In this document: in pieces, positions 37,699 to 57,725 of the stretch
Numbering within the stretch: position 1 is the first letter of the stretch
Layout: each line of letters starts with the position of its first letter
Assembly: GCA_030592655.1 (NCBI GenBank)
Contig: JAUVIQ010000001.1
Coordinates: 1-59,356 of the forward strand
From: Planctomycetales bacterium
GTDB lineage: Bacteria > Planctomycetota > Phycisphaerae > SM23-33
Direction of reading: 5' to 3'
DNA: 59,356 bases
Position numbers and translations under genes: made by a program
Notes under the pieces: model-generated
Databases searched by the model: none
The model's input: the letters and a program-made list of their open reading frames with translations, nothing else
What the model was told of the DNA's origin: nothing

Positions 37699-38895
37699 GT
37701 GAAACAATTGCGCGTTATCCTGACGTTGATTCTTTTCGCCACCGGCGGCGCTTCGGCGGAGATAACCGCTTCGCTGGAGGTCTCAACGCAACAGGACGCC
37801 TCCGATAAAGCATATCGACGGGCGGAACTGACGATTAACAACTCGGCCGACGCTGCCGTTGAATCCGTCCTGCTCAAACCTGCCGGCGTCGGACTGACGG
37901 TTCGATACAAACTGACCGTCCCGCCGGGATCGACCGGTAAGCAGACCGTCGCGCTGCCGGCTGTCTCGCCCGTACAGGAATACGCCCTGACCGCGCTGGA
38001 CGCATCCGGCGAGACCATCGAGAAGGTTTCGGTTCCGATAACCTGGCCTGCGGAACTGGTTTCGGCCGACGCCTTCATCGACGACGCATTCGGAAAATGG
38101 ATCGACGAACCCGCTCGCCCGCCTGCGAAAACCCGCCGGAATTACCTGCTTGTCCTGGCGATGTTCGTAACGGCAGCGGCTGCGACGCTGTTTATCCGCA
38201 GACCGCTGCTTCGGGTCGGCGCTGTGGTAGTCCTGGTCGGTGGGGCAGCGGCGTTGTTACTGTTCGTCTATTTACCACGCGGGCCTGAGGATGTGCGGGT
38301 TCGTCGTTATGAGTTATTTCTGCACGACGGTATCGGCGGACTTGAATCCGACTCGTTCACGGTGTGCTCTTCCATGCGGACGAGACAGTGTTCCTACGTT
38401 ACCCGTCCCCAGGCGCCTCATCCGGTCTGGCTCGACCGCAAAGACGCCGCGAATGACGATGTCGTGGTGGAACCTGCTGACGGTACGATCCATCTGACGC
38501 TCCGTCCGGGATGGGTACGCGTTATCCGACCCGCCTGGCGAACAGGTCCAGAGGTGGAATTGCCCCCGCGACGTGGAAGCGCGCGGCGGACCGACGACGG
38601 CTTTACAATCGAGGCCGATTTTATTCACCAGGATTCATTGCTGATTCGCGGCGGTTCGGTCTGGGTTATCGACCCGGTTTCCGAGGGGCCGAAAGTTTCA
38701 GTTCGCAGCGACAAGGCACAATCTTACGGGGCGTTTATGAGCAGCGAGGGCGGGAAGTTACTCGACCGTAACACCCGCCGATTACTGGATTACTGGCGAA
38801 AGAAGCACCGGAAGGCAAAAGAATTCTACCTCATCGAATCGCACAGCGACGACGACAGCGTTCGCATGGAAGTTCTGCTGCTACCTTTGCGATAG
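37699..38895 (+). CDS. hypothetical exported/membrane protein
   Basis: GTG start, a signal peptide and two central hydrophobic segments. Its 3' end overlaps the convergent gene by 15 nt. Confidence 0.4.
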   Translation: MKQLRVILTLILFATGGASAEITASLEVSTQQDASDKAYRRAELTINNSADAAVESVLLKPAGVGLTVRYKLTVPPGSTGKQTVALPAVSPVQEYALTALDASGETIEKVSVPITWPAELVSADAFIDDAFGKWIDEPARPPAKTRRNYLLVLAMFVTAAAATLFIRRPLLRVGAVVVLVGGAAALLLFVYLPRGPEDVRVRRYELFLHDGIGGLESDSFTVCSSMRTRQCSYVTRPQAPHPVWLDRKDAANDDVVVEPADGTIHLTLRPGWVRVIRPAWRTGPEVELPPRRGSARRTDDGFTIEADFIHQDSLLIRGGSVWVIDPVSEGPKVSVRSDKAQSYGAFMSSEGGKLLDRNTRRLLDYWRKKHRKAKEFYLIESHSDDDSVRMEVLLLPLR

Positions 38896-39900
38896 TGCCC
38901 CGGTAGGGCATGCGGCGGCGCACTGCAAGGCGGTGGTCTTGAGACCTTCGGCTATGGAGCGGTCGAACGGTACAGTTACACGCACGTCAAATCCCCGCCC
39001 GATAAACGTCAGGCCCAGTTCCTCGCGGGCGTCTTCGGCGATTCGGACGCACAGGCCACAGGCGATGCACTTTCCCGGTTCGTAGATTACGTCGGGATGC
39101 TCGCGGTTTTGCACAAACGACCTCCGCTCGCCTTTATATCGCCTGGCCTTTGCGCCGTAGAGTTCGGCATAATAGCGGAGTTTGCAGGCGTCGGCCTTTC
39201 GGCAGTCGCAATGCATACAGCGGCGCGCTTCGTCGCGGGCCTGGTCTTCGGTCAGGCCGTCGTCGGACGGTTCGATTCGTCCGCCTCGATTCGTGCCGGC
39301 GAGGAATTGCTCGATTTCGCCTTCTTGCAATCGTCCGATGTGGACTGAAAACCGGCGGCGATTGTCCGGCCCTGAAGGTTGGACGACCAGGCCGGCAGCG
39401 GCTGCATATTGCATCAGGGCGCGGATTGAAACCGGCGAATCGAATTGTTTCCGTCGGCAGGCGCGCTCGCACGGAGCGGGGCAATCGTCGCAGGGGATTT
39501 CCGAAGCGCCGTCAGCGTCGCCGGTTTGGCCGGCTGCTATCTGCCGGAGCACAAGTGGGATGTTCAAGCCGGCGGGGCAAGCGCTTTGGCAGGTCGCTAC
39601 GCAGTCGCCGAGATGGTCGCTCAGCAGCAGTTCCAGCGCGTCTGTCCGTGCTGTGCGGATTTCGTCGGTATCGGTTTGGACCTTCATACCATCCCGAGCC
39701 AGAGTCGCGCAGGCCGGAACCAGGCCGGCGAGACCCTCAACCTTCACCACGCAGAGCATGCACGAAGCGTTCGCCCGGACGCCTTCGAGGAAGCACATCG
39801 TGGGAATCTCGATTCGGAGTTTTTTGGCGGCATCGAGGATCGTCTCGCCGTCGGCGACTTCCACCTTGCGATTGTCTATCATCAGATGCGGCATATTCAT
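38881..39900 (-). CDS. NuoG/HydA-N-terminal-like iron-sulfur protein (2Fe-2S plus 4Fe-4S domains, no catalytic domain)
   Basis: N-terminal 2Fe-2S ferredoxin pattern (IDNRKVEVADGETILDAAKKLRIEIPTMC...C..C...C). CMHCDCRKADACKLRYYAELYG resembles the N5-type cluster motif. CIACGLCVRI...CAAACPTGAL is 4Fe-4S. The protein ends after about 339 aa. Confidence 0.7.
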   Translation of the reverse strand: MNMPHLMIDNRKVEVADGETILDAAKKLRIEIPTMCFLEGVRANASCMLCVVKVEGLAGLVPACATLARDGMKVQTDTDEIRTARTDALELLLSDHLGDCVATCQSACPAGLNIPLVLRQIAAGQTGDADGASEIPCDDCPAPCERACRRKQFDSPVSIRALMQYAAAAGLVVQPSGPDNRRRFSVHIGRLQEGEIEQFLAGTNRGGRIEPSDDGLTEDQARDEARRCMHCDCRKADACKLRYYAELYGAKARRYKGERRSFVQNREHPDVIYEPGKCIACGLCVRIAEDAREELGLTFIGRGFDVRVTVPFDRSIAEGLKTTALQCAAACPTGALSQR

Positions 39901-42221
39901 TCAACCTTTATCGCATCGGCTGGGCATACTCTCATGCACGTTCCGCAGCGGATGCACTTTTCGACGTCGATTTCGTGTTTCTCATGCGGCTTCATTTCGA
40001 TGGCGTCGGCGGGGCAATGCTGGGCGCAGAGCGTACAGCCGATGCAATCGTCGGTAATCACGTACTTTATCAGGTCTTTGCATACTCCGGCGGGGCACAC
40101 CCCGGCCAGGTGCGCTTCGTACTCGTCGCGGAAGTATCGCAGCGTCGAGATGACCGGATTGGGCGCGCTCTTGCCGAGTCCGCAGAGGCTGGATTTACCG
40201 ACCGCGCCGGCAAGGTGCTCCAGTCTCTCCAGGTCGTCGCCGCGACCTTCGCCTGAGCAGATGCGGTTGAGTATGTCGAGCATTTGGCGTGTTCCGATTC
40301 GGCAGAAGGTGCACTTTCCGCATGACTGGTCCTGCGTGAACGCCAGGAAGTAGCGTGCGATATCGACCATGCAATCGGTCTCGTCCAGCACGACCAGTCC
40401 GCCCGACCCCATAAACGCCCCGACGCCGACGAGCGATTCGTAATCGATCGGCGTGTCGGCCAATGACGCCGGGATGCATCCGCCCGATGGTCCGCCGATC
40501 TGAACGGCTTTGAATGCTTTGGAGTCGATGATCCCGCCTCCGATTTGTTCGACTATTTCGTGGATGGTAATCCCCATCGGCACCTCGACGAGTCCGCCTC
40601 GAACGACCCTTCCGGCCAGGGCGAAGACCTTTGTGCCCTTGCTCAGGTCCGTCCCCGTATCCGAGAAGGCCCCGGCTCCGTTGCGGATAATCCAGGGGAC
40701 CATCGAGAATGTTTCAGTGTTGTTGACGAGGGTGGGTTTTCCGTTCAGCCCGCTTTGGGCAGGGTACGGCGGGCGCGGGCGAGGCATCCCCCGCCGACCT
40801 TCGATGGACGCGATAAGGGCGGTCTCTTCGCCGCAGACGAAAGCGCCGGCCCCCGGGACAATCCGCAAACGCAGTTTTGGGCCAAGCAAATTCCGCTGCC
40901 GGCACTGCTCGATTGCGTCTGTCATCCGTTTTATCGCCAGGGGATATTCGGCGCGGATATAGAAAATTCCCTCGTCGGCCCCGACGGCGTAAGCGGCGAT
41001 TACCACCCCCTCGATTATCCGATAAGGTTGACTTTCCAGCAGCAGGCGGTCCATGAACGCGCCGGGGTCGCCCTCGTCGCCGTTGCAGATGATGTATTTC
41101 TTTTCGCCATGCGCCTGACGGACGTGCAGCCATTTCAGACCCGTTACAAATCCCGCTCCGCCCCTTCCTCGAAGACCGCTGCGCGTAATCTCGTCGATGA
41201 CCTGTTCGGGCGATAATTCGTCGGTGCATTTCCGCAATGCCTCGAACCCGCCGCCGGAGATGTATTCGTCCAGGTCAGCCGGGTCGGCGCTTCCGGCCTG
41301 CTCGGTGGCGATCCGCTTCTGCGGGCCTGTGAACTCGGAAATAATCGCCTCGCGGACGTCCGTCGAATATCGCGTAACAGGCTCCCAGGCGTCGTCGGTG
41401 AGAATGTTTTCGAGGATGTGCGACGCAGACGTTTTGATTTTCCGCATGATTCCCCCGGGCCTGAAGTGTCGCAGGACGATTGCCTCGGCGTCTTCGGGTT
41501 TTACGCCCGCGTACAACGACGGCGGCAGGCCCGGAAGGACAACCTCCACCAGCGGCGTTATGTAACTCATGCCCGTGCATCCGACCCGCTTGACAGAGGC
41601 TCGCGCGCCGGAGCGTGCCACAGCCTCGCACAACGCCTCATACACCGCGCCGCATCCCCGCGCGATGCAGCACGTATCGAGACTGATGCGAATCTCCCCG
41701 ACTTCCGCGCCGGGTTCGACGGGGCGGGCCTTGCGATGAACCCGACGGGACTGAAGGTTCAGAAAATCCCGCACCGCATCGGCGGCGGTGTCGCCGGAAA
41801 GGTGGCCGTAGGTTACGTCGCCGATCTGCACCACCGGAGCGAGCGAGCAGCAGCCAAGGCAGGCGACCTTCTCGACGGTGAACACTCCCGCCGCGTCGGT
41901 GTCGTCGTCGGGCGGGATGTCCAGATGGCGGCAGAATCCGTCGTGAACCGCGCCGGCGCCCTGGACGTGGCAGGCGGTTCCCACGCAGACGCGGATTGTG
42001 TGCTCACCGGCAGGACGATGGCGAAACTGCGTATAAAACGTTGCGACGCCCTCAATCCGCGCCGGCGTAATCTCGCTAATCTCGCAGACCCGCTCCAGGA
42101 CCTCGCGCGGCAGGTAACGATAATGCTCCTGAATCGCCTGGAGGATCGGTATCACCGCGTCGGGATTTTGCCCGATTCGCTCGATAAGACCGTCCACAAA
42201 TGTCAAATCCGCCTGATTCAT
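39897..42221 (-). CDS. NuoE-NuoF fusion flavoprotein (NADH-binding, HydB/HydC- or Bfu-type) with C-terminal 2x[4Fe-4S]
   Basis: NuoE-like CVGTACHVQGAG...CLGCCSLAPV. NuoF motifs GLRGRGGAGFVTGLKW, ICNGDEGDPGAFMDR and SCGKCTFCRIG. C-terminal CIGCTLCAQHCP and CIRCGTCMRVCP. The start is set to MNQADL (42221), which makes an ATGA overlap with the upstream gene. Confidence 0.85.
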   Translation of the reverse strand: MNQADLTFVDGLIERIGQNPDAVIPILQAIQEHYRYLPREVLERVCEISEITPARIEGVATFYTQFRHRPAGEHTIRVCVGTACHVQGAGAVHDGFCRHLDIPPDDDTDAAGVFTVEKVACLGCCSLAPVVQIGDVTYGHLSGDTAADAVRDFLNLQSRRVHRKARPVEPGAEVGEIRISLDTCCIARGCGAVYEALCEAVARSGARASVKRVGCTGMSYITPLVEVVLPGLPPSLYAGVKPEDAEAIVLRHFRPGGIMRKIKTSASHILENILTDDAWEPVTRYSTDVREAIISEFTGPQKRIATEQAGSADPADLDEYISGGGFEALRKCTDELSPEQVIDEITRSGLRGRGGAGFVTGLKWLHVRQAHGEKKYIICNGDEGDPGAFMDRLLLESQPYRIIEGVVIAAYAVGADEGIFYIRAEYPLAIKRMTDAIEQCRQRNLLGPKLRLRIVPGAGAFVCGEETALIASIEGRRGMPRPRPPYPAQSGLNGKPTLVNNTETFSMVPWIIRNGAGAFSDTGTDLSKGTKVFALAGRVVRGGLVEVPMGITIHEIVEQIGGGIIDSKAFKAVQIGGPSGGCIPASLADTPIDYESLVGVGAFMGSGGLVVLDETDCMVDIARYFLAFTQDQSCGKCTFCRIGTRQMLDILNRICSGEGRGDDLERLEHLAGAVGKSSLCGLGKSAPNPVISTLRYFRDEYEAHLAGVCPAGVCKDLIKYVITDDCIGCTLCAQHCPADAIEMKPHEKHEIDVEKCIRCGTCMRVCPADAIKVE

Positions 42222-43996
42222 CGTTTCGCGCCGCTTATACAAAACAGATGCTTTTCACCTCGTATGTAAATCCGCCCGTCCATAAAGGCCGGGGTCGCAT
42301 AAACTTTTTCGCCCAGTTCGCTCCGGGCGATTTCCTTATATTTCCGGTCCGCCTCGATGATGATTGTTACGCCGTCGATGCTGATAAGATAAACCCGCTC
42401 GCCGACAATAGAGGGCGAGGCGTTGATTTCCATATCCAGTTCCCTGTCCCAGACCATGTTACCGGCTTGGATGTCGTAGCAGGTCAGCGTTCCGTAGGTC
42501 TCCATCAGCCAGAGGAGTTTTCCGTCGCTGACGGGTGAGCAGATGTCCGGCAGGCCGTCGATGGCCGTCCATGCGATGTGGGTTTTTGTAACGTCGCCAC
42601 TGCCGTCGGGCCTGATTGCGGCGACGACCGCGTTGGTGTTAACGGCGAAGACCATTCCACCGGCGTAGATCGGGCAGGGCGCTACGTCGCCGTCGAGGCA
42701 CTTCGCACGCCACAGTTCAGACCCGTCGGCGGGGCTGTAGGAAATCACCCACGGGTTGCCGCAGGTGATTACCTGTTCGCGTCCGCCGGCGTTGATAACA
42801 ATCGGCGAAGACCACGAATCGGGAACAGGCCGCTCTTTCGACCAGACATCATCACCGGTCAGTGCGTCCAGCGCGAGGAGTTCCGATTTGCCTTCTCCTT
42901 CCCGACCCTGGTCGAATTTCACCAGCAGCAGGTTCCGCCACATCGTCAGCGACGTGGAGTGGCCATACATATTGTCCGGCAGGCCGAGGTTCATCGCCCA
43001 AAGCCGCTCGCCGTCGAAATCGAAACATATCAAATCACCGTTGGCGAATATCGCATATACCCGCTGACCGTCAGCCACCGCTGTCGGCGCGGCATAGCAG
43101 GCCCCCAATTCCTCTGAAATCCTCGGCGCCTTTGCGACGCTGCCGGGAACGTTCGCTACGTCCCGCTGCCACAGCAACTCGCCCGAATCGGCGTCGAAAC
43201 AATAGACCTGGCGTTTGTCCATTGTCGCTCCGGTCAGGAAGATTCGATTACCCCAGACGACCGGGGAATTTTTACCCGCCAGCGGAACCGGCGCCTTCCA
43301 GAGAACACCCTCGCCGCTCTTCGCGTTCCATTTCGACGGCACGTTCGTATATGCCGATATTCCCAACCCGCCGGGTCCGCGAAATCGAGGCCAATTCCTG
43401 CCGATTTCCTCAGCCGAGCCGAAGCGGACAACCAGCGGAGGCGGTTTTTCGACATCCTTGACGGCAGTGGGAAAACCCTCTATCGGCACGATGAAGGCCA
43501 GCACCGTCGCACCGCCGAGAATCGCCAGCCCCGCCGCTGCGACCGACCATCGGGCAAACGTACCGGCGCGAACCTCCGCCCGTTCCTGATCGCCCGGCGG
43601 AGCGGGGCCGGAAATAGTCTTGCGACAACCGACAGCCACCCCAACCGACACCAGCAAAACCACAATGCCGCCAAGCAACAGCCACCCACCACGAACTCCG
43701 AACGCCTGCCTGCGGAAATACTCCTCGCGCAATTCCAAGTCCATCCGCCGGACTTTGCTCTTGAGTTGCTCGTCGTTCGGATAGGTCTGCAATTTGGCTT
43801 TGAGCGCCACGAACTGCTCGGAGTCCAGCGGGTCGGAGACGTCGCTGTGAAAATAGTTTTGGATAAGCCCAACGCAGACAACCACGCAAAAGACGCCCGC
43901 AACGATGGCGCACGCCACGCTAGCGCGATACCATGTGGAAGCAGGAACGGTATTTTCGGATTTGTCGTCAACCATTATATTCATTCGCATAAGCAC
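42218..43996 (-). CDS. membrane-anchored PQQ-like (BamB-type) beta-propeller repeat protein
   Basis: An N-terminal TM segment and a second TM, then repeated motifs of the form VYCFDADSGELLWQ. Confidence 0.75.
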   Translation of the reverse strand: MLMRMNIMVDDKSENTVPASTWYRASVACAIVAGVFCVVVCVGLIQNYFHSDVSDPLDSEQFVALKAKLQTYPNDEQLKSKVRRMDLELREEYFRRQAFGVRGGWLLLGGIVVLLVSVGVAVGCRKTISGPAPPGDQERAEVRAGTFARWSVAAAGLAILGGATVLAFIVPIEGFPTAVKDVEKPPPLVVRFGSAEEIGRNWPRFRGPGGLGISAYTNVPSKWNAKSGEGVLWKAPVPLAGKNSPVVWGNRIFLTGATMDKRQVYCFDADSGELLWQRDVANVPGSVAKAPRISEELGACYAAPTAVADGQRVYAIFANGDLICFDFDGERLWAMNLGLPDNMYGHSTSLTMWRNLLLVKFDQGREGEGKSELLALDALTGDDVWSKERPVPDSWSSPIVINAGGREQVITCGNPWVISYSPADGSELWRAKCLDGDVAPCPIYAGGMVFAVNTNAVVAAIRPDGSGDVTKTHIAWTAIDGLPDICSPVSDGKLLWLMETYGTLTCYDIQAGNMVWDRELDMEINASPSIVGERVYLISIDGVTIIIEADRKYKEIARSELGEKVYATPAFMDGRIYIRGEKHLFCISGAKR

Positions 43997-44013
43997 TTAA
44001 TTAATCATGCATT

Positions 44014-44126
44014 GGGTGGCACCTTCAACCGTAGCGAAGCGGAGGTTGTGGGTGCTGGATGGGCAAAATGTAAAGCACCCACAAGCTCCGCTCCACTTCG
44101 TTCCGCTGCGCTTGAAGGTGCCACCC
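44014..44126. mobile_element. 113-bp palindromic (MITE/REP-like) element, intergenic copy
   Basis: 15-bp perfect terminal arms gggtggcaccttcaa / ttgaaggtgccaccc and inner arms gcggaggttgtgggtgct / agcacccacaagctccgc. It is near-identical to 50022-50135 except for the loop. Confidence 0.75.
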
Positions 44127-44132
44127 GGTCAT

Positions 44133-45461
44133 TTATTTATTTTCCCTTATCCGTTTTAATCGCGCTTGTTCGCGCGGACAGTGGGCGAAGCATCGTCCGC
44201 AGGCAAGACAGTCGGCACGGTCGGCTTCGTAGTCGTCCCGCCTTCGACGGATGGAAAATCGAATCATCTTCAACATCACTACAAGCGCGATGAACGCGCC
44301 CAACAACCGGGCTCCGAGGAGAAACTCTCCACGTTTGCCCGAAGCCTCTTCGTAAAGTTCAGCCACAGGCCTGCGGCTTTCGCGAAAGACCTCACTGGCA
44401 TCGGTGGTCCCTTTGATTTTTCCTGCATCTTCGTCCCGGATGCGTTCGGCCAGGCGGATTGTCGGATTTCTGCGAGACAGAACGGGCGAGACCCGCCCGC
44501 CCAACCAGCCGCCGACAGCAACCATCACCGGCAGCAGGAGAATCAGCGCCGCCAGCCGGCCTTTGCCTTCGCTCCGGCTGACGTTTTTTCGGCGGGTTGG
44601 TTTATTTATGGCTCCGAACGGACAGGCGTCCTCGCACAAGCGGCACTGGATACACTCATCCGGCGTGATGGTTACTCGCCAACGGGAAAAGCGGCTGAGG
44701 ATACGCAACAACGCTCCGTAGGGGCAGACGAACCGGCAATAAACCCTGCCGATAAAGGCGCTTATCAATAAGACGCACGCGCCCAGCGCAAGGAGGTTGA
44801 AACGTCCGCCCAAATCCCACCCCGGCCAGGAACCGTCCTGGATAATCGCCTGTCCCCATTTACCAAGCGGAACCAGGCGGAAGAATCCGACGAACGGGTC
44901 GAGCCGGCAGATGATAAACGCGCTGCCGGTGGCCGCCATCAGAACCGCCAGACCAAGATAGACATACGGCAAAATCCCCAGCGCGTGGGCCAGCCAGGCC
45001 GGGACTTTGAGAGGTTTGACAAGCACGACGTCCTGGATCGCTCCAAGCGGGCAAACGGCTGCACAAAAGACCCGCCCGAAAAAGAGCGTGAACACCAGCG
45101 GCAGGGCGAAGAAGGCGATAATCGCCGCCGGGACGACATACCCGCTGTCGAACAGGCCCAGCGTAACATTCTGTATCGACCCGACCGGACAGACGCACCC
45201 GCCTCGCCAGAAGCCGAAATACAACAGCGAAAAAATCGTCAGCGCGAGCAAGCCTCGCCGCGAACGCCTTTTCAACGCCAGGTACGCCGCCAGCGCCATC
45301 GCCGCCGCCAGTACCGCTACGTCAATATATTCAAAAATATCGCTCTGCGGCGCCGGCGTTGTCGTATCGGGCCGGTCATACCATTTCGGCAGTTTCGCCG
45401 CAGCCAAGGCGACGCTCGCCGAAACAGTTAGCACAATCAGAAAGAGAATCAATCGTCTCAA
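44133..45461 (-). CDS. NapH/MauN/NosH-family membrane polyferredoxin
   Basis: CX3CP motifs at TM ends (FCAAVCPLGAIQD, YCRFVCPYGALL), GCVCPVGSIQ, and cytoplasmic CIQCRLCEDACPFGAI and CLACGRCFAHCP. Confidence 0.75.
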   Translation of the reverse strand: MRRLILFLIVLTVSASVALAAAKLPKWYDRPDTTTPAPQSDIFEYIDVAVLAAAMALAAYLALKRRSRRGLLALTIFSLLYFGFWRGGCVCPVGSIQNVTLGLFDSGYVVPAAIIAFFALPLVFTLFFGRVFCAAVCPLGAIQDVVLVKPLKVPAWLAHALGILPYVYLGLAVLMAATGSAFIICRLDPFVGFFRLVPLGKWGQAIIQDGSWPGWDLGGRFNLLALGACVLLISAFIGRVYCRFVCPYGALLRILSRFSRWRVTITPDECIQCRLCEDACPFGAINKPTRRKNVSRSEGKGRLAALILLLPVMVAVGGWLGGRVSPVLSRRNPTIRLAERIRDEDAGKIKGTTDASEVFRESRRPVAELYEEASGKRGEFLLGARLLGAFIALVVMLKMIRFSIRRRRDDYEADRADCLACGRCFAHCPREQARLKRIRENK

Positions 45462-45504
45462 ATCTCGTTACCCTTTATCCGTCACTTCGTTCCGGAAGAG
45501 AACA

Positions 45505-46071: not shown

Positions 46072-46283
46072 CTTTTCGACATCCCGCGTTTGATGGTCAT
46101 CGCCTGGGGCAGTTCGCAATCGTCGAATGCCCGACAATCGCGGCAGAAGCCGCGAGAAATACATCTCTGCCCAGGCCGAAATCTTCGCTTCAGCAGAACA
46201 TACGAGACAGCCGCTACAGCCCCCATCGCTGCGCCGCGAACGACCCAGCCAAGAAAATCGCGCCGGTTTTGTTTGTCCTGCAC
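46068..46283 (-). CDS. small Tat-signal-like, membrane-anchored Cys-rich protein (71 aa)
   Basis: GTG start 1 nt after the NHL gene stop. NRRDFLGWVV followed by a hydrophobic helix, then CISRGFCRDCRAFDDC (4 Cys). The longer ATG-initiated version would overlap the NHL gene by more than 130 nt. Confidence 0.35.
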   Translation of the reverse strand: MQDKQNRRDFLGWVVRGAAMGAVAAVSYVLLKRRFRPGQRCISRGFCRDCRAFDDCELPQAMTIKRGMSKR

Positions 46284-46284
46284 C

Positions 46285-51700: not shown

Positions 51701-52080
51701 CCGTCCAGCAGGACGTCTGCGCCCCCCAGGCGCCAGAACCGCTTATCGACTCCGAGGACACCAAGACGGTTGGCACGGGTATGGGTTTCGGAGTTGACGG
51801 CTGTGGCGTTCAGGTGAATTACCGGCGCGGCGCCGGCGTCCAGTTCGCCGGCGATCTCGTCGGCCAGTTCGGCGCGGAAGAACCTTTCCGGTGAAGCGAC
51901 GGCGAGAGTTACCTCTCCAAGGCGGCGTTCGGCGACGGCTTCGAGACTGAACTTCACCGAATCGCCGACTGCCAGCGCGCCGACCAGAACGGCCGTTCCG
52001 ACCGCGACGCCCGCGACGACGCCCAAATGCCCGCGCAGATAAAATCGCAGGCTGCGAAATATCAGCCTCCAGGTCGTCAT
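48718..52080 (-). CDS. ABC transporter permease with two FtsX domains (YbbP/MacB-type)
   Basis: 1120 aa. Two blocks, each of a TM helix, a large extracytoplasmic domain and three TM helices. It is coupled by ATGA to the ATPase gene. Confidence 0.85.
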   Translation of the reverse strand: MTTWRLIFRSLRFYLRGHLGVVAGVAVGTAVLVGALAVGDSVKFSLEAVAERRLGEVTLAVASPERFFRAELADEIAGELDAGAAPVIHLNATAVNSETHTRANRLGVLGVDKRFWRLGGADVLLDGKASREVVLNEPLARRLGVRPGDSIVLRIRKPGLMPNDAPMSGDAETAVAMRLTVKAVASESQFGRFSLRAEQVAPMTAFVPLEILQSAIDRPGRANMLLLGKGAKINPKSAGAAMRKHWKLADAELEVRELPGGYGEFRTDRVFIEHPVEQAAKKIIPSADGILTYFVTEIRCGKRKTPYSMVTAMGPLGNREETQGFEPLGLEHPGLSFDIKDDEININKWLADDLQAKVGDEIELEYFVISPTRKLQTRTSKFRVRRITSMDVRDADRELMPKFPGITGVKNCKDWKPGKYFDPRRVRDKDEDYWNRYGGTPKAFVTLRAGKKMWSNRFGGLTAIRFPLSTVSSRVRGDMLRAEIDPASVGLFFRPVRAEAVAAGKKSLNFGSLFLGMSFFLMASAALLVGLLFVFGVQQRSEQVGTLLAMGFRPGQVRRLMLAEGGVLALIGGVIGTFAGLMYTKAIILGLGTVWTGAAAGTSTIRFGVEPMTLAVGGVSGVLIALAAMWITLRGQMTLSARQLLTGGRVAPSSGAKRSEAELVGALLHSSSSTHNLRSAPVEGATRHFGLWFGLVAVGAAVAILAVSAGNDRYAPTVFFAAGAVLLIGSLAFVRAWISRLSRSVEMTLAGLSMRNTGRRPGRSLATVALLACGVFLIVAVGANRKNPLTDTGKSSSPTGGFALYGESALPVPDDLDETEGVRFRIHDGDDASCLNLNRPQRPRIMGVEPGQLRGRFTFAKTIGKTDDPWRLLNRIETDGATPAVADQATIVWALGKSVGDTLAYTDERGKTFRIRLVGALAGSILQGGLIISERNFTGHFGSESGYRAFLIDAPPSEVESLTRTLTADPGLADVGLELTPTTDRLAAFYAVRNTYLSIFQALGSLGLLLGSVGLGVVVLRNVLERRGELALLQAVGFSRSVLYRMVLYEHSVLLAMGLLCGSLSGFVAVIPVLRSSGGAVPGLSLLLTLAAVACGGILWIYLATASALRGEILSALRGE
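50022..50135. mobile_element. 114-bp palindromic element inserted in frame inside the permease CDS
   Basis: It belongs to the same element family as 44014-44126. 114 bp equals 38 codons, translated as RVAPSSGAKRSEAELVGALLHSSSSTHNLRSAPVEGAT, located between the two FtsX halves. Confidence 0.75.
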
Positions 52081-52808
52081 TTCAGACTATCTTTCTCGAC
52101 GAGCACGCCGTCGGTCAGTTCGAGCATTCGGTCCATCCGGCCGGCAAGGTCTGTCGAATGCGTTACGACGATCAACGCAGTTCCTTCTTCGCGGTTCAGT
52201 TCGACCATTAGTTCGGCGAGGTTATCCGAGGCGGCCTGGTCCAGCGAGCCTGTCGGCTCGTCGGCAAGCAGCAATTTCGGGGCGTTGATAAGCGCTCGAA
52301 CGACGGCGACTCGCTGGCGTTCGCCGCCGGAGAGTTGCCCGGGACGATATGAAACTCGCCCGGTAAGCCCGACCCGCTCCAGCAGCCTTTGGGCCCGCTC
52401 GGCAGCGCCGTCCCGGTCAGTTACAAGCGTCGGTACGAGGACATTTTCCAGAACAGTGCATTGCGGCAGAAGATGATGGAGTTGGAAGACGAAGCCTATT
52501 TGCCGGCTTCGGATGGCTGCGAGGGATTTTTCATCCTGTTGCGAGAGGTCCTGACCGTTCAACATTACCCGCCCGGAGGTGGGCTTATCCAGCGAACCGA
52601 TGATATTCAGCAGCGTGCTTTTACCCGAGCCGGAAGGACCGACAATCGCCACCGACTCGGCGGCATCGACCTGAAGCGAAAGACCCTTGAGAACCTCCGT
52701 CGCCGAAGCGATACCGGGAGAATCGTAACGTTTGTATATGTCAGTCAGTTCCAGAAGCGGGTTGGGCGACATGATTTTATCCTGATTGTCATTTTGGTCC
52801 GAAGGCAT
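52077..52808 (-). CDS. ABC transporter ATP-binding protein (LolD/MacB/YbbA-like)
   Basis: Walker A GPSGSGKSTLLN, signature LSGGERQRVAVVRAL and Walker B LLLADEPTGSLD. The start may be the internal Met at 52772. Confidence 0.9.
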   Translation of the reverse strand: MPSDQNDNQDKIMSPNPLLELTDIYKRYDSPGIASATEVLKGLSLQVDAAESVAIVGPSGSGKSTLLNIIGSLDKPTSGRVMLNGQDLSQQDEKSLAAIRSRQIGFVFQLHHLLPQCTVLENVLVPTLVTDRDGAAERAQRLLERVGLTGRVSYRPGQLSGGERQRVAVVRALINAPKLLLADEPTGSLDQAASDNLAELMVELNREEGTALIVVTHSTDLAGRMDRMLELTDGVLVEKDSLK

Positions 52809-54024
52809 ATACCGTCCCGTCCTCGCTTCCGACGATAATCGCCGAACCTGCCACGGCGGGCGAAGCCGTTATTGGCTGTCCTACTTCATAAGACCATAAT
52901 TTGGCTCCATCCGAAAGTCTCAGCAGGTACAGCCTGCCGTCGTCGCTGCCGACGACGACCTTGTCGCCGCAGACGACGGGGGAACTATCAACATTGCCGC
53001 CGGTCCTGAAGACCCAAACCCGCTTTCCGGTTTTACGGTCGATGCAATGGACCCACTCATCCTGTGAGCCGAACACGACGTAATCGTCCGTTACCGCCGG
53101 CGATGAAAAGACCGGGCCGTCCATATCATCGTACCGCCAGAGGATTTTGCCGGACAAGAGGTCCACGCAGACGATCTCGTTGTCGTAATGACCGACATAC
53201 GCCCGACTGCCCACTATCGCCGGCGAAGAGACGATGGGAGCATCGACCTCGATACTGCGCGAGAATGTGCCGTCGGCGATGTTGACGACATAGAGGCAAC
53301 TCCCACAGTTTCCGAAGACAGCCTTCCCGTCGGCCAGGGCGGGAGCGCCGTTTATAAATTGTTCCGTCTCGTATGCCCAGACGCCTTTACCGTCGGATGC
53401 GTCCACGCAGTGCAATTTTTTGTCGTAACTACCGAAGAGTATCCACGTTTTACCGGATGCGATGCGGACCCGGTTGGCTGAACCGAGGATTTGTCCGCCG
53501 GCTTTGTATTTCCATTTTTCACCGCCCGTTTCAGCGTCGATGGCGTAGAGAATCGAATCGGTCGAGCCGACCAGGACCATTCCGTCGGCGAGGATCGGCG
53601 GCGCTTCGATCTCCCCGCCGGTCGGGAATACCCAGACTCTTTTCCCGTCGAGCAGGTTGAGGGCATAGACGTTCGAATCTGCCGAAGCGACGAACACCTT
53701 CCCGCCGCCGACGGCGACCGACGATTTGACAAGCCCGTCAGTGTGGAATACCCAGATGAGTTTGAATGAATCACCGAGATTGCCCCCGGCGATACCCCGC
53801 AGCGCCTTTCCGCCGCGAAATATCGGCCAATGCGCGTCGGCGACGTCGGCCGGTGCGAAACTCCCGCCGCCCGGAGCGTCGCGAACGGGCCGGCTGGCGA
53901 CTGGAGCGGTCGTCGTTTCGGCGTCCGGGCCGAACGAACCGCTCATCACAACTATCGCCCACGCCGCAACGCCGACAACAACCGCAAGGATTATCTCTAT
54001 CGAAACGGACTTCATTGCTAACAC
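52789..54024 (-). CDS. PQQ-like (BamB-type) beta-propeller repeat protein
   Basis: A signal anchor, then repeats VYALNLLDGKRVWVF, LYAIDAETGGEKWKY, LHCVDASDGKGVWAY, VHCIDRKTGKRVWVF. Confidence 0.75.
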   Translation of the reverse strand: MLAMKSVSIEIILAVVVGVAAWAIVVMSGSFGPDAETTTAPVASRPVRDAPGGGSFAPADVADAHWPIFRGGKALRGIAGGNLGDSFKLIWVFHTDGLVKSSVAVGGGKVFVASADSNVYALNLLDGKRVWVFPTGGEIEAPPILADGMVLVGSTDSILYAIDAETGGEKWKYKAGGQILGSANRVRIASGKTWILFGSYDKKLHCVDASDGKGVWAYETEQFINGAPALADGKAVFGNCGSCLYVVNIADGTFSRSIEVDAPIVSSPAIVGSRAYVGHYDNEIVCVDLLSGKILWRYDDMDGPVFSSPAVTDDYVVFGSQDEWVHCIDRKTGKRVWVFRTGGNVDSSPVVCGDKVVVGSDDGRLYLLRLSDGAKLWSYEVGQPITASPAVAGSAIIVGSEDGTVYAFGPK

Positions 54025-54026
54025 CG

Positions 54027-54136
54027 GTAATTTGTAATTGGTAATTCGTAATTCGTAATTGGTGATTCGTGATTCTTAATTGGTAACAGAGCGTCGGTTT
54101 TTTTTACTAATTACCAATTACGAATTACCAATTCAC
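54027..54136. repeat. heptamer-stutter hairpin (GTAATTS units)
   Basis: Left arm gtaattt gtaattg gtaattc gtaattc gtaattg gtgattc gtgattc ttaattg gtaac. Loop with T8. Right arm ttaccaattacgaattaccaattcac, complementary to the left arm. The right arm overlaps the pseudopilin stop codon. Confidence 0.8.
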
Positions 54137-54891
54137 GGATTGAGCAGATCGGCGTATTCGAAGATTTCGTCTATACGTGGAAAAAGCGCCGGTTCGTCTC
54201 CGCTTCGCATCGTCATAGCGTCATTCGTGTTCGGAAAAATGGCGGCATGACCGGCAGCGAAACCTACGGAGACCTTCTCGGCATTGTGATTGACGCGTGT
54301 GTACCACGGCATGAACGGAATCTTCATCCGGCTGTTCATATCAAGAATCAGCGCGGTAACGCGATTACCCTGCGCATTGACGCCGAGGTCGTCGATGCAT
54401 CGACCGAAGTCTTCGGTTCCCGTTGCCCGCGCGTCGAGTTGACGGTACGAGTACGAGCTGTGAGCCGGTTCGCCGGAGCGCTCCTGAATCTTTACCAGGT
54501 CTTTTGCCGGTTCGTCCGAGTTATCGCTGGGGCAGAAGAGTATCTGCGGCTGGGGAAGGTACTTTTCCAGCAGCACGCCGTGCGCGTCGTAGGTTTTTCG
54601 GACGTCGCCGATCCAAATCCTGTGCGTCGCGACGTCGCAGATACGCGGACGGAATCCCGGCGGCGCGAGCATCAGTTCCGAATCAGGCCCGGTGGGAATC
54701 TTATCGTTCTCTTCTGTGGCGTACATTGCAATCGCCCGCAATTGCCCGCCGACGTTGGTTACGCAGATCGTCTGACGTGCAAGTTCCTTGGCCTTTCCGA
54801 GCGTCGGTAAAAGAATCGACACAAGCAGCGTGATAATCGCCACAACAACCAATAATTCCACAAGCGTGAACCCACGACGAGAAACCGACAT
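54133..54891 (-). CDS. prepilin-type N-terminal cleavage/methylation domain protein (DUF1559-like pseudopilin)
   Basis: [25 protein letters not shown] is the canonical G/FTLxE prepilin motif plus hydrophobic helix. Confidence 0.85.
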
Positions 54892-54896
54892 CCGTT

Positions 54897-56264
54897 TTAC
54901 TCCTTACCTATGCACCAGAGATTCTTGTAGCCTCGAATATAAAGGCGTTTGCCCCGGAATACGGGCGAGGAGCGGAACGTTTCCAGTCTGTTCCTGGCCA
55001 CTTCCTCGTATTCCCGTCCGGGTTTCAGCACGACGGTTCTCCCGTTGTCGCTGCTGACGTACAGATATTTACCGGCCAGTGTGATACTCGGGTAGGGCTT
55101 CCCTCCAAGACGGAGATTCTTCGTATAGACGACCGACCCGTCCTTTGAGTCGATAACGCTGAAGATACTCCCTTGCGTAACCGCATAGACAAGCCCTTGA
55201 TGCAACACGGGCGAAGCATAGTATCGGTCCTTCTTCAATGTTGCCCGCCAGAGAGGTCTGCGGCTTATTTTCTCGGAGGCGTCTTTGGGTAGTTTGAAAA
55301 CCTCGGACTTGGTCTGGATGAAATACGCCTTGTCGCTGTCAATAATCGGCGTGTTATATTTCAGTCCCGGCAGGCGATTGGTCAAAACCTCCCCGTCGGA
55401 GATGCGAATAACGCTGCCGCTGGAGTTAATTACTACGTCGGTCCGTCCGATTTTTGCGTGAACCAGCGAACCCCAGCATTGCCTCGCCTTGGCCTGCCAG
55501 AGAATCTCGCCGCTTTTCGCATCAAGAGCGAAAAGACCGATTATGTGAACGAGCAGTTTATCGCCTACCAGCAGGGGCGAGGCGCTGTGCCCGTATCCTT
55601 GCGTGGGCTTTTCTATCAACTTTATCCACTTGCGGTTTCCGGCCAGGTCGTAACATGCCGCTACGCCCGTACCGAAAAGCACATAGACGTGCTTACCGTC
55701 GCTGACCGGCGTGCTCGATGAGTATCCGTTGGTCTTGTGGGCCTTGGGCATGCGATACTTCGTAAAGGGCTTCATCTCGGCCTTGAGCGCCCGAATCTGT
55801 TTGTTCAGATTCTGGATTTTCTCTTTCAGTTCCGCGTCCTTTGGGGACTTTCCCAATTGGCGACGCGCCCGGCGACGCGAAAGGTCGAGCGGGGCGATTT
55901 TTCGGGAAATGGCTTCTGCTTTTGTGTTGTCGCTTTTGGCTTTGGCGGCTCCGGCTGCATCCAGCATGTCGAAATAGGTGTTCGTCCTGGTCCAGAAGAT
56001 TTTCCCGTCGGCGAGGTTGACGCAGACAAGCGTGGTCGGCTCGGAGCAGACGAAGAGTTTGTTACCGACGATTATCGGCGTGGCGTTGCTCCAGGAGGGC
56101 ATGGGCGTCTTCCAGACGATATTGGCGTCGGCCGACCATTTCATCGGCGGCGCAGCGGCGGGATACTTGCCCGTCCCGTCAGTCCGCCAACCGACCGGCC
56201 CGGCATGGGCCAAAGAAAAGATGATGAGCAGACATACAAGGCAAGTCAGAAACACTGTTCTCAT
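54897..56264 (-). CDS. secreted PQQ-like beta-propeller repeat protein with coiled-coil insert
   Basis: Signal peptide, PQQ-type repeats, and a charged insert ([15 protein letters not shown]...[19 protein letters not shown]). Confidence 0.75.
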
Positions 56265-56276
56265 TGTTTTTTTTCC

Positions 56277-57725
56277 TTATCTGATTTTTTTCAGCAGTTT
56301 TTTTGCATCACGTGCATACCGGGAGTCTTTGTGGTTCTCGACGATGTCCGTCAGGATGGCCTTGGCCTTTTCCTTCATACCTGCAGACAGATATGACTTC
56401 GCCATTCCAAGTTTCCCACGGGCCGGGTCCGAATCGTCCGGGGAAGACTTCTTCACGACCGGATCGACTTTGGGTTTCGGGTTTTTGACGGTCGGTTTGG
56501 GTGGTTTGGGGGCGACCTTAATGCAGACGAGTTCGCCCTGGTGGCTTCGGCAGAATACCCGCCCGCCGGAAAGGACCGGAACGGTCCAGCAGGTGCCCGA
56601 AAGCGCCTTGACGCGGGCCAGTTCCTTGTAGCCGGCCGGTGAAGGCTCTGCGACGACCAGCGTCCCACGCGCCTCCATGATAACCATCTTCCCACCGGCG
56701 ATCATAAGCGAACTTTGTCGCCCGAAGCCCCTTTGCGACCACTTGACCTTGCCGGTGGCGAAGTCCAGGCACTTGAACCGATTCGACCAGTCGAATCCGT
56801 AAAGGTGCCCCTTCCACAGCACGCAACTGTTGAAATGATTGGCCATCCTCTTGTGCTGCCAGAGGACGGTAAGTTTTTTGCCTTCGATCTTCAGCAGCGC
56901 GCAACCGTGGCCGTAGCCTGAGGATATGAAGACCTTATCGCCCGATATAATCGGGTCGGCGGCGTTGACGTTGGAGCCGGTTTTCCAGTGATGCCTGCAA
57001 ATGTTGTTTCCTTTCGCCGGGTCCACTATTTCAAGCGTCTTTTCAGCAAAGATGGCTACGCACTTTCGCTTGCCCAGCTCGAACGGTACGGGTGTTGCGT
57101 AACCGGACTTTCCGGAGCCGCTCTTCCAGGCGATTTCTCCGGCGCCTTTATCCAGCGCCACGCCGGCGGAACCGACGTTCAGTATCAACAGTTTACCGAA
57201 TACCAGAGGCGAACCGGAAAACCCCCATCCGGGAGGTCTGGCGTTGAGCTTCTTCTTCCAGCGTTCGGTCCCCGACTTGGCATCGAGACAGAATACGTGT
57301 CCTTCCCGGCTTAGGGTATAGACGTTTTTACTATCGACCGTCGGGGTCGCACGCGGACCTTTATAATCTTTGGCGGGCTTGCAGGTGTAGGTGTGTTTCC
57401 ATATCTCCTCGCCCGTGTCGGCGTTCAGGCACCAGATGGTGTCGGTTTTACCGTCGTTTCCCATCGTATAGACGCGGTCGCCGACGACTGCTACCGAAGA
57501 GTAACCCACGCCGACGGATTTTTTCCAGAGTTGCTTCGTACCGTTTTTCAGCCAGTGCTCCAGCCAGCCCTTCTCGTCGGAGATACCGTTATGATCAGGC
57601 CCGCGCCAGTTGGGCCAATCGGCAGCCTCGGCCCGGCCCGCCGTCAGAAGCACAAGCGTAACCGTCGCTGCGACAATCGCCACTGCCGTCAAAAGACGTC
57701 TGCCTGTAAATGTGGAAAAATCCAT
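56277..57725 (-). CDS. secreted PQQ-like beta-propeller repeat protein with Lys/Pro linker and TPR-like tail
   Basis: The start is trimmed to MDFSTFTGRRLL (57725), preceded by GGGAGGA. PQQ repeats are present (IWCLNADTGEEIWKH, VFCLDAKSGTERWKK). Confidence 0.75.
   Translation of the reverse strand: MDFSTFTGRRLLTAVAIVAATVTLVLLTAGRAEAADWPNWRGPDHNGISDEKGWLEHWLKNGTKQLWKKSVGVGYSSVAVVGDRVYTMGNDGKTDTIWCLNADTGEEIWKHTYTCKPAKDYKGPRATPTVDSKNVYTLSREGHVFCLDAKSGTERWKKKLNARPPGWGFSGSPLVFGKLLILNVGSAGVALDKGAGEIAWKSGSGKSGYATPVPFELGKRKCVAIFAEKTLEIVDPAKGNNICRHHWKTGSNVNAADPIISGDKVFISSGYGHGCALLKIEGKKLTVLWQHKRMANHFNSCVLWKGHLYGFDWSNRFKCLDFATGKVKWSQRGFGRQSSLMIAGGKMVIMEARGTLVVAEPSPAGYKELARVKALSGTCWTVPVLSGGRVFCRSHQGELVCIKVAPKPPKPTVKNPKPKVDPVVKKSSPDDSDPARGKLGMAKSYLSAGMKEKAKAILTDIVENHKDSRYARDAKKLLKKIR

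Follow-up and report, generated by a model that had tools for sequence, protein, structure and literature searches.

In this study, we analyzed a stretch of 59,356 nucleotides (nt) from a Planctomycetales bacterium (Planctomycetota; Phycisphaerae; SM23-33), which corresponds to positions 1 to 59,356 of the forward strand of contig JAUVIQ010000001.1 (NCBI GenBank assembly GCA_030592655.1) and is called the window hereafter. Its minus strand carries 14 consecutive open reading frames (ORFs), which span 38881-57776 in the six-frame ORF list and are named here from G1 (38881-39900, 3'-most) to G14 (56277-57725, 5'-most). A first-pass annotation made from the sequence alone had described them as a translationally coupled array mixing propellers, an ATP-binding cassette (ABC) exporter, a pseudopilin and redox modules, with no recognisable terminal enzyme. 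According to the reading that we prefer, the array encodes one membrane-spanning electron-transfer machine, conserved across phyla, that would lead electrons from NADH to periplasmic propellers; we assign this reading a probability of about one half.

For the comparison with other genomes, a locus scan with one genome per GTDB species was carried out. At least 587 stretches of species-representative genomes encoding a relative of the NHL protein G7 were matched, and the best 80 of these were kept. ORFs were called in 85 fetched loci, to which the L-numbers below refer, and were assigned to the window genes by BLASTP. The locus counts given in the following list refer to the 50 loci with at least 8.5 kb downstream of G7 or to the 52 loci with at least 8 kb upstream of it; transmembrane is abbreviated as TM, iron-sulfur as Fe-S and twin-arginine translocation as Tat.

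G1, 38881-39900, minus strand: BfuA/NfnA-like Fe-S subunit with 2Fe-2S, GltD-type Fer4_20 and HydA/Nqo3-type ferredoxin domains; 43/50 loci.
G2, 39897-42221, minus strand: predicted BfuC (NuoE-like [2Fe-2S]) fused to BfuB; 45/50 loci.
G3, 42218-43996, minus strand: three TM helices followed by a periplasmic PQQ_2 propeller (100.5 bits); 46/50 loci.
G4, 44133-45461, minus strand: NapH-type polytopic membrane Fe-S protein (Fer4_5, 56.9 bits); 47/50 loci.
G5, 45505-46071, minus strand: polyferredoxin with Tat signal and Fer4 family matches; 49/50 loci.
G6, 46068-46283, minus strand: protein of 71 amino acids (aa) with a twin-arginine motif, a weakly hydrophobic segment, a basic stretch, an invariant Cx5Cx2Cx5C motif and then LPxAL.
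G7, 46285-47298, minus strand: NHL propeller with six blades and, in the window, a membrane anchor; some species encode it as a lipoprotein.
G8, 47295-48725, minus strand: membrane-anchored eight-bladed PQQ_2 propeller with N-terminal TM anchor; 45/52 loci.
G9, 48718-52080, minus strand: duplicated FtsX permease with about 10 TM helices and a large MacB-type periplasmic domain; 36/52 loci.
G10, 52077-52808, minus strand: ABC ATPase of the LolD/MacB/YbbA type (ABC_tran, 127 bits); 36/52 loci.
G11, 52789-54024, minus strand: membrane-anchored BamB-like PQQ_2 propeller, first gene of the conserved core; 33/52 loci.
G12, 54133-54891, minus strand: pseudopilin-like protein with a prepilin-type N-terminal methylation motif (N_methyl, 28.8 bits; TIGR02532, 28.7 bits).
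G13, 54897-56264, minus strand: secreted PQQ_2 propeller (78.7 bits), a lineage-specific paralogue with homologues only in L005 and L008 among the 85 loci.
G14, 56277-57725, minus strand: secreted eight-bladed PQQ_2 propeller (100 bits) with a tail resembling tetratricopeptide repeats; 25/50 loci.

Searches with the hidden Markov models (HMMs) of Pfam and NCBIfam bore out the domain content proposed in the first-pass annotation, i.e. five PQQ propellers, one NHL propeller, a double FtsX permease with its ATPase, a prepilin-like protein and the Fe-S/NADH modules. The 14 ORFs and all junctions that had been reported for them were also found again when read from the sequence. Stop and start codons overlap as ATGA at 39897-39900, 42218-42221, 46068-46071 and 52077-52080 and as GTGA at 47295-47298, while positions 48718-48725 form an 8-nt overlap (GTGAATAA). 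The G7 stop codon is separated from the GTG start of G6 by a single nucleotide (46284), and gaps of 5 nt (54892-54896) and 12 nt (56265-56276) lie between further ORFs of the array. A GGGAGG sequence is located 8 nt 5' of the G14 ATG at 57725. The stop/start overlaps cross the borders between modules, namely at G8/G7, G7/G6/G5 and G4/G3/G2.

Only two spacers are longer than 100 nt, and each contains a strong inverted repeat. RNA folding of the hairpins yielded -72.7 kcal/mol (z = -9.5) for 44010-44130 and -28.7 kcal/mol (z = -4.9) for 54024-54136, in agreement with the structured repeats described earlier for both spacers. No T-tract follows 3' of either spacer hairpin, and promoter-like or terminator-like sites in the region were not enriched over shuffled sequences. 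Thus, nothing in the sequence favours internal transcription units, although this is no proof of a single transcript either. An Rfam scan of the whole window detected no known RNA element and hence provided no riboswitch or ligand clue.

The 3' end of the array encodes the cytoplasmic NADH module. Description of G2 as a NuoE-NuoF fusion held with respect to the fusion and its domains (2Fe-2S_thioredx, 154.7 bits, residues 11-151; Complex1_51K, 155 bits; NADH_4Fe-4S, 110.8 bits; two Fer4 domains), but the protein appears to be specifically a Bfu-type BfuC-BfuB core and not a generic NuoEF. Its BfuB part comprises an N-terminal domain, the flavin mononucleotide (FMN)/NADH site, the B1 [4Fe-4S] cluster and a C-terminal 2×[4Fe-4S] ferredoxin domain with two CX2CX2CX3CP motifs (residues 720-772). 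In a PDB search, residues 176-774 aligned over their full length, at roughly 60% identity, with B chains from electron-bifurcating complexes of solved structure. E-values were 3e-205 for 9bov_B, 1e-204 for NfnB (9n5u_B), 9e-196 for 8oh5_B (deposited as 'NAD-reducing hydrogenase subunit HoxF'), 1e-194 for NiFe-HydB (7t2r_B) and 1e-166 to 1e-182 for HydB chains, versus about 1e-100 for the formate dehydrogenase beta subunits (FdsB), Nqo1 and NuoF.

A conserved BfuBC core carrying FMN and Fe-S clusters is the defining feature of the Bfu family, whose non-bifurcating homologues are devoid of the extra BfuB clusters, including those of the C-terminal dicluster domain (Schut et al. 2022, PMC9304861). 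The minimal site consists of FMN, B1 and C1, complemented by Zn sites and by a dicluster domain at the C-terminus that binds ferredoxin (Li et al. 2025, PMC11829005). In G2, the NuoF-type FMN/NADH domain with B1, the C-terminal dicluster domain and the NuoE-type BfuC (C1) were all present, and at the sequence level Bfu membership holds for the BfuBC core. The N-terminal BfuB domain aligns at residues 176-252, where the window reads GCTGMS and most orthologues read GCVGMC. The equivalent N-terminal region of Csac NfnB binds Zn rather than an Fe-S cluster (PMC11829005).

G1 had been taken for a truncated NuoG-like protein. It is indeed a shortened Fe-S protein, but a BfuA/NfnA-like one from which the flavin adenine dinucleotide (FAD) domain was deleted. 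The N-terminus matches PRK12814 (211.8 bits) and, in the PDB, 9bov_A, StnA and NfnA, while the C-terminus matches residues 101-206 of HydA. Orthologues of about 520 aa align to residues 1-185 and 182-339 of G1 only, which indicates an internal deletion of about 180 aa that removed the FAD domain (compared with L029, 17317-18885, and about 40 other loci). These orthologues carry NAD_binding_8 and the ends of Pyr_redox_2, i.e. an FAD-type Rossmann domain without the NADPH subdomain. In L005, the closest relative, no G1 follows G2, and no catalytic domain for a third substrate was recognised in G1.

Upstream of the NADH module, G4, G5 and G6 would form a wire through the membrane. G3, whose TM segments were placed at residues 27-45, 106-124 and 152-170 by hydropathy, shows translational coupling with the NADH module and may serve as its membrane dock. 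G4 has 15 Cys residues conserved in at least 90% of its orthologues, which belong to two CX3CP motifs and two CX2CX2CX3CP motifs or represent C89, C91 and C185. Judged by hydropathy and the positive-inside rule, the CX3CP and ferredoxin motifs would face the cytoplasm and C89, C91 and C185 the outer side; the ferredoxin and CX3CP motifs of Escherichia coli NapH are likewise located on the cytoplasmic side. G4 scored 48.2 bits with the NapH/MauN model TIGR02163 (cut-off 213) and 42 bits with PRK09477 (cut-off 234), contains two extra TM helices between its ferredoxin motifs and had no informative relative in a PDB search. Because its scores fall far short of the NapH/MauN cut-off, G4 is regarded as NapH-like, not as NapH itself.

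G5 contains an invariant RR and 17 Cys residues conserved in at least 90% of 73 orthologues, sufficient for four [4Fe-4S] clusters. By analogy, it would take the 'NapG-like' role, while no NapG/MauM model was among its NCBIfam matches at E ≤ 0.01. Of the NapH-like/NapG-like pair proposed earlier, the Fer4_5 membrane protein and the Tat-exported four-cluster ferredoxin therefore stood, whereas membership in the NapG/MauM and NapH families did not; association with NapA, NapB or NapC was not found.

The small Cys-rich, Tat-like protein G6 turned out to be a real and usually unannotated gene. In 62 of 74 loci from several phyla, the interval between G7 and G5 contains an ORF of this type (RR...Cx5Cx2Cx5C). 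Its translation is kept in L005 (about 11030-11247) and L003 (11007-11246), the proteins being 71-79 aa long, and both public annotations leave this gap empty. G6 had no Pfam or NCBIfam match; its four invariant Cys residues are probably the ligands of a single metal or Fe-S centre. Similarity between the N-termini of G5 and G6 extends to the DNA sequence (repeat D5). Assignment of G6 to the endonuclease III-type Cx6Cx2Cx5C motif was rejected, as the true spacing is Cx5Cx2Cx5C. Also, fusions of NHL proteins with G6 were dismissed as a Rosetta stone, the longer family members being read-throughs or proteins with low-complexity tails.

Every propeller of the array bears a TM anchor, a lipobox or a Sec signal, which places the propellers in the periplasm. 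The five PQQ_2 propellers (G3, G8, G11, G13, G14) are of the eight-bladed BamB type. G8 is the most conserved of them, with about 52-57% identity across phyla, on par with the Fe-S proteins, a mean column identity of 56% in an alignment of 32 sequences and at least 3694 homologues at E ≤ 1e-10. The residues H165, G166, R169, C186, H187, Q219, C220, P221, N254, T261, H262, S263 and W301 are invariant, and M260 is nearly so. The window paralogues G3, G11, G13 and G14 lack H165, C186, Q219, C220, T261 and H262, and H187 is shared by G14. The structure model of G8 is an eight-bladed propeller (predicted local distance difference test score, pLDDT, 84.7). Based on secondary structure, the invariant residues are predicted to sit in loops leading into the innermost strands of blades 2-5 and thus on one face around the central channel, with H165, C186, H187, C220 and H262 at blades 2-4. 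BamB in β-barrel assembly machinery (BAM) complexes was the best fold match (template-modelling score about 0.73 on the target), and tetrathionate hydrolase (6l8a/7cqy; score about 0.6) was also found, with identities of 14-21%. Both fold matches are suggestive and not diagnostic. A sequence-profile search of the PDB with G8 detected designed propellers and BamB only.

In the NHL propeller G7, two family-specific invariant motifs were found, GF-x-GCCNP, in which the vicinal Cys256-Cys257 pair is absolutely conserved, and TxEKGxxRxK. The model (pLDDT 85.9) matched only the NHL domains of TRIM2, Thin and PknD. Taking conservation, family-specific invariant His/Cys residues, models and fold neighbours together, G8 with its His/Cys face and G7 with its GCCNP motif are the best candidates for the missing terminal site. 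The earlier suggestion that the propellers are obvious candidates for this site is supported by these residues, while a scaffolding role, assumed earlier for such propellers, probably does not apply to G8 and G7.

G11 (PQQ_2, 163 bits; Beta-prop_ACSF4, 215 bits) is a lipoprotein in some species. G14 starts with a Sec-type signal peptide (AEA|ADWPNWRGP), and its orthologue lies downstream of G1 in most other species.

G9 and G10 form an ABC pair. The permease G9 matched FtsX twice (61 bits), MacB_PCD (34.7 bits) and, weakly, the ADOP duplicated permease family; its first periplasmic domain is very large (about 480 aa), and a PDB search yielded no informative relative. By its domains, G9 is assigned to the type VII ('mechanotransmission') ABC permeases, in keeping with the combination of an FtsX permease bearing MacB_PCD and a cognate ATPase. 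The true start of G10 is probably at 52772, as this start matches the 231-aa orthologue in L005 and a start at 52808 would overlap G11 by 20 nt. Equivalog cut-offs for Lol and MacB were not reached by the pair (LolD TIGR02211, 267.8 vs 307.75; lolCE, 20 vs 362; MacB, 220 vs 966). The pseudopilin-like G12 is lineage-specific and was found only in the closest relative L005 among the 85 loci.

Relatives of the array are widespread. Database homologues of G7 exceed 1500, and a profile search of 1.84 billion representative proteins yielded 1766 clusters at 50% identity (E ≤ 1e-30). The hosts belong to Planctomycetota (Phycisphaerae, Sedimentisphaerales, Pirellulales, Brocadiia), Aminicenantes, Verrucomicrobiota, Kiritimatiellae, Armatimonadota, Spirochaetota, Bacteroidota and Aegiribacteria. 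Nearly all matched stretches are metagenome-assembled genomes (MAGs) of anoxic habitats, and, as judged by record titles, the hosts are mostly predicted fermentative heterotrophs of anoxic sediments and digesters.

The order G11-(GT4)-G10-G9-G8-G7-G6-G5-G4-G3-G2-G1-(G14) recurs in dozens of species. It is shared by Planctomycetota, Aminicenantes, Verrucomicrobiota, Kiritimatiellae, Spirochaetota, Bacteroidota and Armatimonadota, so that synteny, which had been named as a check, came out strongly in favour of a common system. The conserved unit comprises 11-12 genes with a core of G8-G7-G6-G5-G4-G3-G2-G1 plus G11 and G14; the ABC and GT4 genes are an accessory module found mainly in Planctomycetota. 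The idea of the 14-gene array as a unit hence stood for these 11-12 genes, but the pseudopilin G12 and the propeller G13 are lineage-specific, and the canonical GT4 gene is missing here. This GT4 glycosyltransferase, which has an N-terminal CxxC, lies between G11 and G10 in 29 loci (including L013, L019, L025 and L026) and follows G11 in Aminicenantes; no tblastn hit for it was obtained in the window. A role of GT4 in thiol-cofactor synthesis (BshA/MshA-like) was rejected, as the protein is a generic GT4 and all specific models stayed far under their cut-offs. In a canonical cluster such as that of L029, neighbouring genes touch or overlap one another, and no further enzyme gene would fit in between.

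Two further observations were made at these loci. In L041, a complete Phycisphaerales MAG chromosome, the G4 position (11734-13500) is occupied by a NapH-type Fer4_5 membrane domain fused to a GTPase (MnmE/Der/FeoB_N-like). A link to iron uptake via this GTPase was set aside, since the FeoB_N match is weak, the case is single and MnmE/Der-type models score better. In seven loci, squalene-hopene-cyclase-like proteins (620-800 aa) or prenyltransferase-repeat proteins are encoded upstream of G11 or G8 on the same strand. The cyclase-like protein occurs in L009, L011, L012, L022, L081 and L085. Four of these loci (L009, L012, L081, L085) encode a second protein, with prenyltransferase repeats, just upstream of it, and L030 has the prenyltransferase-repeat protein only. 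These genes hint at a hydrophobic or isoprenoid ligand, or at a binding module.

The search for a terminal enzyme was negative. None of the 14 array proteins contains a CxxCH motif, and neither molybdopterin, H-cluster, cupredoxin/Cu or Nos family domains nor domains of hydrogenase, formate dehydrogenase, carbon monoxide dehydrogenase or another low-potential oxidase were detected in them with Pfam and NCBIfam. The HMM check that could have overturned the first-pass annotation thus left its statement on the absent terminal enzyme in place: no haem, molybdopterin, H-cluster or Cu domain was found in any ORF. No array protein reached a curated equivalog cut-off, all matches being to generic domain or family models, and no description of the cluster was found in full-text literature searches, in line with the earlier view that the combination corresponds to no characterised system. 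It also stands that the electron sink and the ABC substrate are not assignable from gene content.

Comparison with known systems revealed partial likeness to several of them. At the sequence level, G2 shares the BfuBC core with the Bfu family (HydABC, NfnABC/StnABC, NiFe-HydABCSL and the predicted membrane-bound Nuo-Bfu and Mbh-Bfu). In contrast to Bfu enzymes, BfuC and BfuB are fused here, BfuA retains Fe-S domains only (in other species together with an FAD domain that has no NADPH subdomain), and the partners are a NapH-type membrane protein, Tat-exported ferredoxins and periplasmic propellers. The Bfu family accepts many 'third substrate' modules, up to quinones and H2O2, and membrane-bound forms are predicted (PMC9304861). 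The same 2022 survey lists 17 BfuB clades without assigned function and mentions PQQ, propeller or NapH partners not once (PMC9304861).

As in NapGH, NosGH and NosR, the array combines a Tat-exported polyferredoxin with a polytopic membrane protein of the CX3CP/[4Fe-4S] kind. In clade II nos clusters, such a pair adjoins periplasmic β-propeller proteins and an ABC transporter, as it does here, and proteins of the NapH family recur beside periplasmic propeller enzymes (NosR or NosGH with NosZ, NirI with NirS, MauN with MauB). Unlike Nap and Nos systems, the array has no NapA, NapB or NapC, no NosZ (CuZ/CuA), NosD or NosL, and its ABC transporter is of the FtsX type VII and not NosFY; no propeller matched a Nos or cupredoxin family. 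Also unlike NapGH, the electron input appears to be an NADH-oxidising Bfu module and not quinol.

G9 and G10 resemble MacB, LolCDE, YbbAP and ADOP in their FtsX domains, MacB core domain and LolD/MacB/YbbA-like ATPase, and the duplicated 10-TM permease corresponds to that of YbbP/ADOP, but the pair is embedded in a redox and propeller cluster and has no adaptor or TolC-like partner. G8 shares the eight-bladed PQQ_2 fold with BamB and tetrathionate hydrolase and differs from both by its TM anchor and its family-specific invariant His/Cys residues. The BamB model TIGR03300 gave 175 bits for G11 and 43.5-70 bits for G3, G8, G13 and G14 (cut-off 285), and the best score for the dehydrogenases dependent on pyrroloquinoline quinone (PQQ; TIGR03075/TIGR03074) was 84 bits against a cut-off of 480. 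As each comparison failed on the defining HMMs or cofactor features, the system does not belong to the Nap, Nos, Lol, Bam or quinoprotein families. By analogy, it may be described as a hybrid of a Bfu enzyme core and a NapGH/NosGH/NosR-type electron supply to periplasmic propellers, with a partner set that appears to be new; its terminal chemistry may be categorically new.

Based on the gene content, motifs, homologies and synteny described above, the following mechanism is proposed for the electron-transfer machine. In the cytoplasm, the Bfu-type module, composed of G2 and the trimmed BfuA G1 as an Fe-S extension, would oxidise NADH at FMN and, by homology, may also exchange electrons with ferredoxin. 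G3, with its three TM helices and propeller, and G4 would hold the module at the membrane in one complex. Electrons would then flow outwards, entering the cytoplasmic clusters of G4 and passing on to the Tat-exported four-cluster ferredoxin G5 and to the small four-Cys protein G6 as a periplasmic relay. In the membrane-anchored propeller assembly, the His/Cys residues of G8 or the GCCNP motif of G7 would reduce a periplasmic or cell-surface acceptor. Thereby, the machine could serve fermentative anaerobes as an NADH-regenerating electron sink. G9 and G10, together with G11 and, in most species, GT4, would probably deliver, extract or install something on the periplasmic side.

Our leading guess for the acceptor, a weakly supported one, is an oxidised sulfur species or another thiol-reactive compound of fairly high potential, based on the Cys-Cys motif of G7 and Cys chemistry, the tetrathionate-hydrolase fold neighbour and the sulfidic habitats. 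As a precedent, tetrathionate hydrolase is a cofactor-free PQQ_2-type propeller of sulfur metabolism and was among the best fold matches of G8.

Several points speak against this electron-transfer reading. NapGH of E. coli is a quinol dehydrogenase, so that G4 may talk to quinone rather than to G1/G2, and to our knowledge the route of electrons across the membrane through NapH-type proteins has not been established. L001 has G8-G7 alone, next to a malectin-domain gene and with genes for PDZ proteins nearby, and L013 carries G11 to G7, both of them without redox genes. L041 has G8-G7-G6-G5 followed by the NapH-like-GTPase fusion and no NADH module. Conversely, loci of Aminicenantes, Bacteroidota and Spirochaetota contain the redox genes and several extra propellers and, in the stretch examined, no ABC pair. 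The clustering of the invariant G8 residues follows from secondary structure only, and the resemblance to tetrathionate hydrolase behind the sulfur idea amounts to only 14-17% identity. Furthermore, the second Cys of GCVGMC in the N-terminal domain of G2 is replaced by Ser. With this exchange, the deleted FAD domain of G1, the absence of G1 in L005 and the missing GT4, the window version looks derived and trimmed, and erosion or remodelling of the cytoplasmic module seems to be under way in this lineage.

A stronger version of the electron-sink reading, which we regard as tentative, is a bifurcating sink, in which the Bfu core would send one electron via G4, G5 and G6 to a high-potential acceptor at the propellers and the other 'uphill' to ferredoxin for energy conservation (Rnf or hydrogenase). 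G2 lies much nearer to BfuB chains with proven bifurcation than to non-bifurcating NuoF and keeps the ferredoxin-binding dicluster domain, and the Bfu family is defined by exactly such a core, with its third substrates, membrane-bound forms and 17 unassigned BfuB clades (PMC9304861). However, bifurcation cannot be read from a sequence, the BfuA-like subunit is trimmed here and absent in L005, and the cluster includes no ferredoxin gene. Also with low confidence, one may picture a heme- and quinone-free, all-Fe-S transmembrane wire. A membrane-docked bifurcating Bfu core would feed ferredoxin as well as the NapH-type protein, G5 and G6, and these would supply a new class of propeller reductase (G8/G7) acting on polysulfide, tetrathionate or another sulfur or thiol-reactive acceptor, while the type VII ABC transporter would handle a poorly soluble substrate or product. 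This would amount to a new energy metabolism of fermentative anaerobes in at least seven phyla.

A different and rather unlikely explanation is a machine for envelope biogenesis or maintenance, whose BamB-like propellers, LolCDE/MacB-like ABC transporter, GT4 and, in this window, pseudopilin would handle a lipoprotein, glycolipid or surface polymer, with the redox chain only supplying periplasmic reducing power for Cys reduction or disulfide isomerisation in anaerobes. BamB in BAM complexes as the best fold match of G8, LolD as the closest relative of G10 (267.8 bits), the GT4 gene between G11 and G10 in 29 loci, the occurrence of G7 and G11 as lipoproteins in some species, the G8-G7 pair beside malectin and PDZ proteins without redox genes in L001, and the cyclase-like or prenyltransferase-repeat proteins upstream in seven loci would all fit such a role. 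However, the BamB and Lol equivalog scores are all far below their cut-offs, the invariant His/Cys residues of G8 are not BamB features, and the ABC and GT4 genes are missing in several phyla that keep the redox genes and G8/G7. Also, a dozen or more Fe-S clusters and a Bfu core would be a heavy cost for housekeeping thiol reduction.

That no single system exists, and that ABC/propeller, NapGH-like and NuoEF-like operons are merely adjacent, is very unlikely. The modules also occur separately, and the two long hairpin spacers could separate transcription units, but the gene order is kept in several phyla, overlaps extend across module borders and promoter-like or terminator-like sites are not enriched. 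Moreover, the hairpins are mobile REP-like (repetitive extragenic palindromic) elements without T-tracts, one of which lies inside G9. Least probable of all is an inward flow, in which the propellers would oxidise an external low-potential donor and G5 and G4 would pass the electrons to the Bfu core for reduction of NAD+ and ferredoxin: Bfu enzymes are reversible, several of them running toward NAD and ferredoxin reduction (PMC9304861), and it is textbook knowledge that NuoEF-type modules reduce NAD+ in Hox and Fds enzymes, but the array encodes no low-potential oxidase, few periplasmic donors are reducing enough, and the hosts, being mostly predicted fermenters, need sinks and not extra reductant.

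The repeat elements of the array are as follows; MITE stands for miniature inverted-repeat transposable element.

Palindromic element 1, 44014-44127, no strand assigned: 115-nt REP/MITE-like element, inverted repeat I1, filling the G4-G3 spacer.
Palindromic element 2, 50022-50136, no strand assigned: in frame inside G9, at about residues 648-686, where a cytoplasmic linker joins the FtsX halves.
G12-G11 spacer palindrome, 54024-54136, minus strand: AT-rich and imperfect, with AATTACG/AATTACC heptamers; inverted repeats I8, I9 and I11.

Element 2 is 94-96% identical to element 1 (repeats D3, D6, I3) and folds with -85.9 kcal/mol (z = -10.9). It adds residues that are absent from the 82%-identical G9 orthologue of L005 (of the 37 gap positions in the alignment as a whole, most fall at this site) and leaves the ORF unbroken, which is reminiscent of the Rickettsia palindromic elements in coding sequences. 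The terminal 15-mer of the 115-nt element occurs four times in the window, with 0.1 occurrences expected. A further hairpin at 25853-25934 (34-nt arms, 82% complementary) has the GGAGCGAAGCGGAG core in common with the elements at 44014 and 50022, which suggests that the hairpins at 25853, 44014 and 50022 belong to a family of related REP-like elements in this genome.

Elsewhere in the window, three copies of a 26-nt palindrome (TGAGGTCACAAATTGCGACCTCAAAA-like) were found at 9948-10390, in the intergenic region from which gyrB (7211-9754, minus strand) and a SEC-C-motif gene (10540-12990, plus strand) diverge; they may be operators or sites close to the origin. A tract of 10-nt periodic repeats (GGGCCGAAAC, GGAACGAAAC, GGGCCAATTG) is located at 3544-3653 and a pair of GC-rich palindromes (TTTTGCGTTCGCGTTTGCGCGCGCAAACGCGAAC) at 3941-4087. 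The region 26001-28000 is a low-GC island (47% versus 55-60% around it) with a 572-aa ORF (26113-27831, minus strand) that weakly matches C-type lectin, and horizontal acquisition of the island is possible.

With 11-14 genes and well over a dozen predicted Fe-S clusters, the system represents a large and costly investment. Among its hosts are the Phycisphaerae, Sedimentisphaerales, Pirellulales, Aminicenantes and Kiritimatiellae, groups that dominate in many anoxic sediments, seeps and digesters. G6, the conserved Cys4 gene of 71 aa, represents a concrete annotation gap. If the proposed electron transfer to the propellers is true, one of the 17 unassigned Bfu clades would gain a membrane-spanning, periplasm-directed partner module of a new kind, and a further case would be available for the question how NapH/NosR-type proteins pass electrons across the membrane. 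As an electron sink, the system would change the modelling of redox balance in abundant 'fermenters' and of their coupling to the sulfur, iron and humic cycles.

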